Positions 35,639 through 36,213 of a stretch of 55,764 bases of DNA are shown here, one piece after another. Within the stretch, counting starts at the first letter, position 1, and each line of letters begins with the position of its first letter. Below the pieces are notes generated by a model. That model was not told where the DNA came from and did no database searches. It was given only the letters and a program-made list of their open reading frames with translations. The stretch lies in IMG/VR virus record IMGVR_UViG_3300033402_000018; one strand, written 5' to 3'. Made by a program: the position numbers and the translations under genes. The DNA is from a virus.

Positions 35639-35728
35639 GGTGAGTTGGGAGAGTGGTTGATTCCGCTGGTTTGCTAAACCAGAGCACCCGAAAGGGTGCC
35701 ACAGGTTCGAATCCTGTACTCACCGCCA
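35639..35728 (+). tRNA. tRNA-Ser (anticodon GCU), CCA encoded
   Basis: cloverleaf by hand: acceptor GGTGAGT/ACTCACC, anticodon loop TTGCTAA (GCT at 35673-35675), long variable arm AGCACCCGAAAGGGTGCC, T-arm ACAGG-TTCGAAT-CCTGT, discriminator G. Confidence 0.9.
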
Positions 35729-35729
35729 T

Positions 35730-35815
35730 GGTAGGTTTGGGCATTGGAAGGCCCACCTGTCTCGAAAACAGGCGACCGAAAGGTCGTAGGAGTTCGACTC
35801 TCCTACCTACCGCCA
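35730..35815 (+). tRNA. tRNA-Ser (anticodon CGA), CCA encoded
   Basis: acceptor GGTAGGT/ACCTACC, D-stem GGGC/GCCC, anticodon loop CTCGAAA (CGA at 35763-35765), variable arm CGACCGAAAGGTCGT, T-arm AGGAG-TTCGACT-CTCCT. Confidence 0.9.
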
Positions 35816-35824
35816 AATTTTAAG

Positions 35825-36002
35825 CTGGGCGGTGTATGGCACGGATACTTCTCGAAAAAGTAAAAACCCGTGACCGCGATGTTCCCCGGCAAAGTGTAAG
35901 TTCGCAGCGGTGTTGGATACAGTTACTTCGGTTGACTCTCTCAGGGAAACCTGAATGAGGAATAGACTTGGTTCGATCCCAAGCGACCAGCCGTAAGGCT
36001 GG
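35825..36002 (+). ncRNA. unclassified structured RNA with tRNA-like ends
   Basis: 5' CTGGGCG + D-like hairpin GTAT-ggcacgg-ATAC. Internal hairpins with UUCG (35926-35931) and GAAA (35941-35954) loops. Perfect T-arm CTTGG-TTCGATC-CCAAG (35967-35983). 3' CGACCAG pairs with the 5' end in 6 of 7 positions. Competing CCAGCC-GTAA-GGCTGG hairpin at 35987-36002. No CCA. Confidence 0.4.
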
Positions 36003-36032
36003 TGTCAACTGTACCGTTTGTTCCCTGCGATT

Positions 36033-36122
36033 GGTGAGTTGGGGGAGTGGTTTAACCCACTTCGTTGGAAGCGAAGCGCACCCGAAAGGGTGCCGTGAGT
36101 TCGAATCTCACACTCACCGCCA
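36033..36122 (+). tRNA. tRNA-Ser (anticodon GGA), CCA encoded
   Basis: acceptor GGTGAGT/ACTCACC, anticodon stem CTTCG/CGAAG, loop TTGGAAG (GGA at 36067-36069), variable arm CGCACCCGAAAGGGTGCC, T-arm GTGAG-TTCGAAT-CTCAC. Confidence 0.9.
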
Positions 36123-36127
36123 AGTTT

Positions 36128-36213
36128 GGAGAGGTCGGCATTGGCACGCCAAGCGGTCTTGAAAACCGTGATACCGCAAGGTATTGGGAGTTCGATTCTC
36201 CCCTTCTCCGCCA
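36128..36213 (+). tRNA. tRNA-Ser (anticodon UGA), CCA encoded
   Basis: acceptor GGAGAGG/CTTCTCC, anticodon loop CTTGAAA (TGA at 36160-36162), variable arm GATACCGCAAGGTATT, T-arm GGGAG-TTCGATT-CTCCC. Confidence 0.88.

Follow-up and report, generated by a model that had tools for sequence, protein, structure and literature searches.

Why would a phage dedicate four transfer RNA (tRNA) genes to a single amino acid? The question is raised by a stretch of viral DNA of 55,764 nt (IMG/VR record IMGVR_UViG_3300033402_000018, referred to in its whole length as the window), in which tRNA-Ser genes with the anticodons GCU, CGA, GGA and UGA lie in one operon, preceded by a short open reading frame (ORF) with a run of serine codons. 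Our analysis showed that this tRNA block is a conserved operon of roughly 450-kb soil huge phages, present in 11 diverged lineages rather than a one-off. We propose, with a probability of about 0.6, that the operon is controlled by ribosome-mediated attenuation and that the structural genes of this attenuator are the very tRNAs which its leader samples, so that tRNA supply would regulate itself. The tRNA content is stated for this stretch of the phage genome.

Organization of the serine tRNA operon

The operon comprises the following elements, all on the + strand.

35456–35485, +: sigma70-type promoter, TGGACA-18-TATACT, 10/12 consensus positions
35499–35567, +: leader ORF of 22 codons, MNRISSLSSSSSSTGAGVGVYA; homologous leaders stand before the cluster in 11 lineages
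35543–35553, +: candidate antiterminator strand (region 2) within the 3′ portion of the leader ORF; G-rich, GGCGG..GUCG, predicted to pair with 35590–35600
35594–35620, +: intrinsic terminator, AGCCGCC-AAGA-UUGGCGGCU followed by UUUUUUA (hairpin 35594–35613); 8 pairs, 6 of them G-C, and a T-run, 19 nt before the first tRNA
35639–35728, +: tRNA-Ser(GCU), ARAGORN and Rfam (59.2 bits); reads AGC/AGU
35730–35815, +: tRNA-Ser(CGA), ARAGORN and Rfam (45.2 bits); reads UCG
36033–36122, +: tRNA-Ser(GGA), ARAGORN and Rfam (53.1 bits); reads UCC/UCU
36128–36213, +: tRNA-Ser(UGA), ARAGORN; reads UCA, and other UCN codons too if U34 is modified
36234–36311, +: tRNA-Leu(UAA), ARAGORN and Rfam; 78 nt, short variable region, class I-like shape
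36503–36598, +: atypical tRNA(UAU), 96 nt, putative reader of AUA, A73 and CCA, long variable arm
36671–36710, +: intrinsic terminator at the end of the operon, GAGCCGAAG ... CUUCGGCUC followed by UUUGCUUUUUAUU; −17.2 kcal/mol, z = −3.0, 0/200 shuffles as stable

Over the whole window ARAGORN calls exactly five tRNAs, all on the + strand, namely the four tRNA-Ser and tRNA-Leu(UAA). A first-pass annotation, made from the letters of the window, had placed the four serine genes and their anticodons correctly to the base, as confirmed by ARAGORN and Rfam. All four form clean cloverleaves with a long variable arm (stem of 4–6 bp), G73 and an encoded CCA, which bears out the class II form, discriminator G and encoded CCA described there. 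Its view that the four tRNAs cover AGY and all UCN codons is likewise supported, they do form a single transcription unit, and the common junction that it had noticed after the CGA, UGA and UAA tRNAs is visible as a shared CCAAATTT trailer. For the UGA gene the top Rfam model is tRNA-Sec, with 45.9 bits (gathering score 47). We rejected this identity because the anticodon loop CUUGAAA yields the anticodon UGA and not UCA, so that the gene is a UCA reader and not a tRNA-Sec. Intron-containing or relaxed-threshold tRNAs in the spacers were also rejected, since ARAGORN runs with -ps80 and in intron mode gave only overlapping noise.

The serine identity features of the phage tRNAs are those of ordinary bacterial tRNAs, with canonical anticodon loops and ordinary long arms, and aminoacylation with serine by seryl-tRNA synthetase (SerRS) is predicted from these features. 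Given such ordinary features, nothing indicates that serine decoding is insulated from the host, which the first-pass annotation had considered.

Conservation of the operon in soil huge phages

The window has the gene content of a very large phage, including an NAD-dependent ligase, ThyX, an AAA ATPase, an OmpA-domain protein and many families known only as PHROGs. BLASTN searches against GenBank phages revealed no close relative and only ~75% matches to single tRNA-Ser genes, in Rak2-like jumbo phages. Relatives were instead recovered by DNA-pattern scans and then via a conserved neighbor protein with 74 homologs (window 38513–39238), which led to the contigs that encode it. They are metagenomic contigs of 447–465 kb and one of 894 kb from peat and soil samples, some of them in IMG/VR; Ga0326728_10000049, Ga0335085_10000040, Ga0604933_0000011 and ERZ25039458 contig_66109 are among those of 447–465 kb. 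Together they represent 11 lineages: the window itself (= L009/L010), L001/L006, L003/L005/L004, L011, L013, L015, L016, L018, L019, L020 and L022. An IMG/VR search with the SprT-like protein encoded upstream gave no related locus, three more IMG/VR pattern scans and a metagenome scan yielded no contigs beyond the two or three already known, and no tRNA cluster was seen near the query gene in the more distant relatives L021 and L023. The longest contig, L015 (Ga0374055_0000025, 894,233 bp), is about twice the size of its 447–465 kb relatives; instead of a genome of 894 kb it may represent a concatemer or a duplication made in assembly.

Genes for tRNA-Ser with the anticodons GCU, GGA, UGA and CGA are present in 11/11 lineages, and the gene order is shuffled between lineages. 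L015 harbors a second tRNA-Ser(CGA), and the UGA gene of L018 is found only at a slightly relaxed ARAGORN threshold. Orthologous genes are ~70–85% identical between lineages and show many compensatory changes in their stems. The four tRNAs fall into two structural types, GCU and GGA on the one hand and UGA and CGA on the other, indicating that the set arose by two old duplications with a change of anticodon and has been retained since. Such recurrence in 11 diverged loci is far beyond chance; the tRNA-Ser genes are genuine and under selection.

The leader codons match the anticodons of the operon

The promoter motif occurs only once in the window, and the promoter including its spacer is conserved in the relatives (TTGACA-17/18-TATTAT and similar). 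Within the spacer, TTTC.CGA.TTTC..GGTAT is kept across lineages, which hints that it carries an additional site for a protein or is under some constraint apart from that on the −35 and −10 hexamers.

The block of promoter, short ORF, terminator and first tRNA precedes the cluster in all 11 lineages, while the protein genes further upstream differ. In the window the leader reads ATG AAC CGC ATA TCC TCA TTA TCG TCA TCT AGT AGC TCC ACC GGG GCG GGG GTC GGC GTG TAT GCG TAA, and thereby uses all six serine codons along with ATA and TTA. Across lineages the leaders comprise 22–26 codons, of which 6–8 consecutive ones encode serine. The peptides share only M-x-R-I...S6-8 and a tail rich in Gly, Val, Arg and Trp: the codon run is nearly conserved at the nucleotide level, the C-terminus of the peptide varies freely, and the corresponding RNA stays G-rich owing to its Gly, Val, Arg and Trp codons. 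A variable peptide tail combined with a retained G-rich RNA is expected if the RNA, and not the peptide, is selected. Only one other ORF of the 55.8-kb window has a comparable serine density, and it does not adjoin a terminator and a tRNA.

The codons of the leader correspond to the decoders encoded downstream. At least one AGY, one UCY, one UCA and one UCG codon is found in every leader, as compared to a chance expectation of 0.23–0.48 per leader. An ATA codon is present in 11/11 leaders and tRNA(UAU) in 11/11 clusters. TTA occurs in the leaders of exactly those nine lineages that carry tRNA-Leu(UAA) and in none of the two that lack it (L013, L018); in L011 and L016 it has shifted to the other side of ATA, yet it is kept. 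TTA and ATA are the rarest leucine and isoleucine codons of the window, accounting for 5% and 9% of their families, and it is nevertheless these that the leader employs. The set is not purely one for serine: tRNA(UAU) is always and tRNA-Leu(UAA) usually present. The serine-codon leader mentioned in the first-pass annotation is real, conserved in 11 lineages and physically coupled to the operon, and this coupling fits a phage that monitors serine decoding capacity.

Terminator and proposed antiterminator

The position of the terminator was looked at in ten loci, with L020 and L022 left out. A hairpin of the GCCGCC/GGCGGC type followed by a U-run is conserved among them and lies 13–29 nt before the first tRNA in 9/10 of these loci, the exception being L003, where an HNH ORF intervenes. 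We used ViennaRNA to fold the leader RNA in different states of its translation. In the predicted fold of the ribosome-free RNA, the G-rich segment is engaged by the serine codons and the terminator hairpin is present. If a ribosome has stalled at ATA, TTA or one of the early serine codons while the 3′ arm of the terminator is still untranscribed, the predicted partner of the G-rich segment is the terminator's 5′ arm. Once a ribosome has reached the stop codon, it covers the G-rich segment, and the 5′ arm would be free.

The antiterminator pairing appears in the nascent-transcript folds of 8/9 lineages. In the window, the duplex between regions 2 and 3 has an energy of −19.6 kcal/mol compared to −15.0 ± 2.5 kcal/mol for shuffled sequences (p = 0.048), and in 7/9 lineages its stability exceeds that of dinucleotide shuffles (p 0.005–0.13; Fisher combined 6e-5, with lineages that are related to each other). 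Moreover, the complementary flanks of the duplex differ between lineages in a compensatory way (GGCUUUGG/CCGAAGCC vs. GGCUGG/CCAGCC). On the basis of these folds and of controls with mixed outcome, the antiterminator is likely but not proven.

A proposed self-regulated supply of tRNAs

The genes and their conservation, the architecture and the agreement of leader codons with anticodons can be read directly from the sequences, and in 11/11 lineages a short ORF with a run of cognate codons, whose classes match the downstream tRNAs, stands where an attenuator would have it. In the model that we propose, host RNA polymerase would start at the sigma70-type promoter and produce an mRNA with a very short leader. 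A ribosome would translate its 22–26 codons, among them AUA, usually UUA, and then the 6–8 consecutive serine codons that sample all four serine anticodons. When decoding is fast, the ribosome would reach the stop codon and cover the G-rich 3′ part of the ORF, so that the GCCGCC/GGCGGC hairpin with its U-run could form and transcription would terminate ahead of the tRNAs. When one or another decoder runs short, the ribosome would stall in the run, the G-rich segment would pair with the 5′ arm of the terminator, and polymerase would read through. The read-through transcript would then be processed into the serine tRNAs GCU, CGA, GGA and UGA, tRNA-Leu(UAA) and the long-arm tRNA(UAU), and these products would feed back on their own synthesis. 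In a GC-rich host, AUA and UUA may stall the first ribosomes, which would turn the operon on when infection begins, and it would shut off as its products accumulate.

We infer three things: ribosomes translate the leader, polymerase does terminate and antiterminate there, and what is sensed is the availability of tRNA rather than of serine itself. The model predicts that read-through into the operon rises when a cognate charged tRNA is scarce. A full-text literature search returned attenuators on biosynthetic genes and on aminoacyl-tRNA synthetase (aaRS) genes and none on tRNA genes. Two precedents lend support to the attenuator: near-leaderless leader peptides are found in attenuators of Deinococcus deserti (PMC4007540), and leader-peptide attenuators act on aaRS genes in Streptomyces lividans (PMC8079986).

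Several observations weigh against this proposal. The 5′ untranslated region spans only ~6–13 nt for the majority of lineages and 25 nt in L003 (measured from the −10 box to the ATG), and the Shine-Dalgarno match is weak (AGAGAA), although the leader ATG is conserved; translation of the leader is thus assumed. L013 and L018 share their operon order and are probably sisters, so that the joint absence of TTA and tRNA-Leu(UAA) likely reflects a single evolutionary event. In L003/L004 an HNH gene lies between the terminator and the first tRNA (373-nt separation in L003). As to the antiterminator, the number of terminator-arm bases that pair with the ORF segment is no better than in composition-preserving shuffles, and part of the signal is mere G-richness. 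No excess stability of the duplex was seen in L011 and L018, the terminator arm is only partly sequestered in the folds of L015, and the combined p-values overstate independence because the lineages are related. Finally, additional tRNA is no cure for starvation of the amino acid, and the circuit is sensible only if tRNA itself is limiting; it thus implies that the concentration of tRNA becomes limiting.

Two further tRNAs of unusual shape

The cluster contains a sixth tRNA, tRNA(UAU), which the first-pass annotation had overlooked. This tRNA is also overlooked by ARAGORN in the window, and its homologs in L013, L015 and L022 are called tRNA-Ile(tat). It is conserved in all phage lineages, and an RNAalifold consensus of nine sequences supports a cloverleaf with an extra arm, in which 20/23 pairs show compensatory changes. 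The anticodon loop is C/U-U-UAU-A-A. Rfam contains no family for it and gives tRNA-Sec as the top match with only 20 bits. From its sequence, tRNA(UAU) appears to be an AUA decoder of unusual shape, and its amino acid may be Ile, Leu or another one.

Coordinates of the homologs are 7741–7835 in L013, 9071–9159 in L015, 5348–5444 in L011, 6334–6424 in L016, 6827–6923 in L018 and 8458–8551 in L019. A long variable arm is unusual for an Ile-type tRNA. Its loop reads CUGAUUA, CAGAUUA or AGAUC, with GAU invariant in the nine sequences, and the arm thereby resembles the anticodon loop of tRNA-Ile(GAU).

tRNA-Leu(UAA) is present in nine lineages, and the short gene of the window has long-arm homologs in relatives. 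Short versions of 77–78 nt are found in five lineages (window; L001 6953–7029; L003 3336–3413; L016 6246–6323; L022 8657–8734), and the normal long arm (86–91 nt) is retained in L011, L015, L019 and L020. A bacterial-type tRNA-Leu without the class II arm is unusual. No tRNA-Leu(UAA) was found in L013 and L018 within ±10 kb (20-kb loci), even at relaxed ARAGORN thresholds; a "tRNA-Leu(taa)" reported for L018 at -ps80 was rejected because it lies inside a gene of 393 aa among 16 noise calls. Several of the Leu(UAA) and UAU tRNAs share a 31–39 mismatch in the anticodon stem.

Codon usage, defense and other explanations

A plain codon-usage patch is possible, though not probable: the host of this phage (54% GC) may be GC-rich and make hardly any use of TTA, ATA, TCT, TCA and AGT, for which the phage would bring its own decoders, and the leader would be incidental or a weak constitutive terminator. 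On the phage side, crude gene calls in the window show ordinary serine usage (6.1% of codons, all six fairly even) and no serine enrichment, and TTA and ATA occur at ~4.5 per 1000 codons. The even use of six serine codons together with this level of TTA and ATA favors such a patch, and phage T4, too, carries tRNAs Leu(UAA), Ile(UAU) and Ser(UGA).

The only hint at a host phylum comes from L008 (CAVVIP010000006.1), a 1.48-Mb contig of an Acidobacteriota metagenome-assembled genome. Positions 1–604 of this contig are phage DNA 98.8% identical to L019, comprising a phage ORF, promoter, leader, terminator and tRNA-Ser(GCU), with the junction 7 nt after the CCA. At the junction the GC content changes from 55% to 67%, and a truncated cydA, cydB, a tRNA-Met and a sigma factor gene follow (605–4455). 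The junction could be due to integration, rearrangement or an assembly chimera. On the bacterial side, TTA accounts for 0/108 leucine codons and ATA for 1/38 isoleucine codons, and serine is mostly encoded by TCG and AGC. This codon usage supports a component of codon mismatch for the UAU, UAA, GGA and UGA tRNAs, and it does not explain the retention of CGA and GCU. Against the patch stands that the link to this host rests on a junction which may be chimeric, and that the patch leaves the conserved block of promoter, ORF and terminator and the match of leader codons and tRNAs unaccounted for. A patch would also be compatible with regulation, and may even be the reason why the circuit exists.

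We consider it doubtful that the operon serves counter-defense, i.e., that the tRNA-Ser class is inactivated by a nucleotidyltransferase of the MenT/AbiEii type or a nuclease of the VapC type, and that the phage replaces the pool and uses the leader as a damage sensor. Toxins of such specificity exist: MenT3 hits serine tRNAs via their variable arm (PMC11541572), and VapC toxins cleave the Ser(GGA/UGA/CGA) tRNAs (PMC10264068). Furthermore, phage tRNAs rescue infection from tRNA-targeting defenses (PMC11464382, PMC11555353). A class-wide loss of tRNA-Ser would demand a complete isoacceptor set, and the long arm has been lost from tRNA-Leu(UAA) in five lineages. The gene context also fits, with a Thg1-like protein, an RlaP-family protein and PTH2 in the window and PNKP, Rnl1 and a CCA-adding enzyme in distant relatives; tRNA repair genes are, however, common in large phages generally. 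The ordinary anticodon loops and long arms of the serine tRNAs do not suggest resistance to a toxin, and tRNA(UAU) and tRNA-Leu(UAA) are better explained as decoders of rare codons. Taken together, toxin literature and gene context are suggestive and not evidence of an attack. Counter-defense concerns the purpose of the operon and is compatible with the attenuator as its mechanism.

An elaborated form of this idea, which we regard as unlikely, makes the operon a sensor of tRNA damage or shortage in an arms race over class II tRNAs: its leader would sample the codon of each isoacceptor and turn on their replacement once a serine-directed toxin (MenT/AbiEii, VapC) or host shut-off has depleted them. 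tRNA(UAU) would then be a new architecture whose arm mimics the anticodon arm of tRNA-Ile(GAU), for Ile identity or the recruitment of a partner, and the recurrent loss of the arm in tRNA-Leu(UAA) would be an escape from a toxin that recognizes this arm.

It is very unlikely that the short ORF is non-regulatory, be it a functional small Ser-rich peptide or a chance ORF next to a hairpin that terminates the upstream gene. The weak or absent Shine-Dalgarno sequence, the very short 5′ untranslated region and the one negative shuffle control of the antiterminator would fit this. However, the upstream gene and the ORF are separated by a promoter, which rules out the hairpin as terminator of that gene, and the block remains attached to the tRNAs while the upstream genes vary by lineage. 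Also against a non-regulatory ORF are the conservation of the codon run nearly at the nucleotide level, with an unconserved peptide C-terminus, and the rarity of ORFs with such serine density in the window, where the only other one is not beside a terminator and a tRNA.

That the operon is a passenger or an integration relic without adaptive role, either captured from a host or marking an attP-type tRNA site, is hardly credible, since all anticodons are kept with compensatory changes across 11 lineages and since the one finding in its favor, the promoter, leader, terminator and tRNA-Ser(GCU) on the Acidobacteriota contig, lies in 604 nt that include a phage protein gene, are 98.8% identical to L019 and abut a truncated cydA, for which we rejected a native bacterial origin in favor of phage DNA joined to a bacterium.

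Spacer RNA, HNH ORFs and neighboring RNA genes

The gaps of the cluster contain two further elements.

35902–36032, +: structured spacer RNA, putatively released from between two tRNAs; 6 lineages, invariant ends, 7 compensatory pairs
36278–36514, −: 78-codon ORF with an HNH endonuclease motif (LELDHRDGDRKNNKLDNLRLLCPNCHA), filling the gap between two tRNAs

The spacer RNA is ~100–135 nt long and always located 3′ of tRNA-Ser(CGA). Its ends, UCGCAGCGGUGU...AGUUACUUC and UUGUUCCCUGCGA, are invariant, and its structure comprises a closing helix and two hairpins, one T-arm-like and one GNRA, accompanied by compensatory changes. Homologs are found at 3512–3644 in L011, 8538–8675 in L015, 5852–5949 in L016, 8036–8174 in L019 and 7429–7559 in L020. 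There is no family for it in Rfam. A degenerate tRNA in the spacer (35816–36032) is not supported, as the conserved structure is not that of a tRNA.

The HNH ORF is probably a decaying homing endonuclease, judging from its sequence. Its region contains an indel (window 36331–36435) relative to contig L009, which is otherwise 99.9–100% identical, and the copy in the window looks truncated. HNH ORFs are located at different sites of the cluster in L003 (~2597–2930) and L018 (~7038–7498).

Genes for the maintenance of tRNA and RNA are concentrated in these phages. Among those of the window are the genes for a Thg1-like tRNA 5′-end repair protein (12352–13185; PF04446, 2e-26), an RNA-repair nucleotidyltransferase of the RlaP family (52726–53562) and a mini PTH2 peptidyl-tRNA hydrolase (37505–37768), which adjoins the cluster in most lineages examined. 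More distant relatives encode PNKP, a T4-type RNA ligase 1 (Rnl1) and a CCA-adding enzyme (L021 14967–20696; L023 480–1682, 7396–8865, 10895–12049). The window also encodes a protein of 815 aa (50013–52460) with Major Vault Protein shoulder and repeat domains (PF11978, 3e-26; PF17795, 5e-11), which is conserved in L015 and L016 and unexpected in a phage.

A SerRS-like core elsewhere in the window

The ORF at 828–1457 (209 aa) had been described as a SerRS-like core. An AlphaFold model based on 33 homologs (predicted local distance difference test score 92.5) has SerRS catalytic domains as its top Foldseek matches in the PDB (template modeling score 0.71–0.76), followed by PylRS and PheRS. Class II motif 2 (fRxE; R98/E100) and motif 3 (GxGxGxxR; G188–R195) are invariant in the 33 homologs. 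No match was found at the sequence level in Pfam, NCBIfam or the PDB, and the corresponding PHROG is labeled "histidyl tRNA synthetase". Hence, the SerRS-like catalytic fold holds up in the model, and an assignment as SerRS proper does not: the protein lacks the N-terminal coiled-coil arm that binds the variable arm of tRNA-Ser, is much shorter than a full-length SerRS of ~420–450 aa and is encoded 34 kb from the tRNA cluster. Truncated SerRS homologs are known as amino acid:carrier-protein ligases; the class II core with motifs 2 and 3 is common to these, to SerRS catalytic domains and to the phage protein. We therefore describe it as a putative class II, SerRS-like adenylating core, not to be filed as SerRS. 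The family is found in 276 GenBank phage records of many kinds and comprises >1200 proteins, mostly on large phage contigs. Being widespread in unrelated phages, it is not specifically tied to the serine tRNA operon.

Comparison with known systems

The closest mechanism is leader-peptide attenuation as in his, trp, leu and pheST, the closest gene set is the tRNA cluster of T4, and the closest functional analog is the T-box. The leaders of trp, his, leu, thr, ilv, pheA and pheST and of the Deinococcus and Streptomyces aaRS genes have the same layout of promoter, short ORF with regulatory codons, alternative hairpins and terminator, and the run of 6–8 codons for one amino acid in the phage leaders is reminiscent of hisL with its 7 His codons. 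In contrast to these classical attenuators, the genes that would be controlled are tRNAs and not biosynthetic enzymes or synthetases. Moreover, the phage-borne leader mixes synonymous codons of both serine boxes, so that each isoacceptor is sampled, and adds single rare codons, AUA and UUA, for two further tRNAs of the operon.

The T4 cluster consists of co-transcribed tRNAs and two stable RNAs (species C and D), with homing endonuclease genes nearby. Like the phage operon it includes Ser(UGA), Leu(UAA) and an AUA-reading Ile tRNA, and its C/D RNAs and endonucleases parallel the spacer RNA and the HNH ORFs. Unlike the phage operon it has one tRNA each for eight amino acids, no full isoacceptor family and no leader-peptide attenuator. 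The two share no sequence similarity; matches to GenBank phages reach ~75% over single tRNAs only.

T-box riboswitches also respond when a specific (charged) tRNA runs short, raising the expression of translation-supply genes by relief of a terminator. Whereas a T-box binds uncharged tRNA directly and controls aaRS or amino-acid genes, the sensor of the phage operon would be the translating ribosome, and Rfam found no T-box.

Phage tRNAs that defeat immunity similarly replace a specific tRNA species that can become limiting in infection, as seen for the T5 tRNA-Lys that counters PARIS (PMC11464382), a phage tRNA-Tyr that counters PtuAB of retron Ec78 (PMC11555353) and phage tRNAs with variant anticodon loops (PMC10264068). 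These are single tRNAs with resistance substitutions, whereas the phage operon encodes a four-member family with ordinary loops and what may be its own sensor.

Implications for phage tRNAs

Whether phage tRNAs serve codon compensation or the evasion of defenses has been debated for fifty years, and to our knowledge almost nothing is known about how phage tRNA genes are regulated. The architecture of the operon described here is well supported, and its function as an attenuator of tRNA genes is predicted. If this prediction is true, the operon would be a direct feedback loop for tRNA supply, in which the ribosome measures decoding codon by codon and the output is the decoder in short supply. 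Classical attenuation would thereby reach beyond amino-acid biosynthesis and aaRS genes to the genes for tRNAs, and a compact natural part of ~170 nt would be at hand for sensing the availability of individual isoacceptors. The two odd tRNAs, long-arm UAU and arm-less Leu, and the structured RNA are of interest in their own right. The virus would, moreover, be one that monitors the translation apparatus, and the system suggests that in soil bacteria serine tRNAs are a contested resource.

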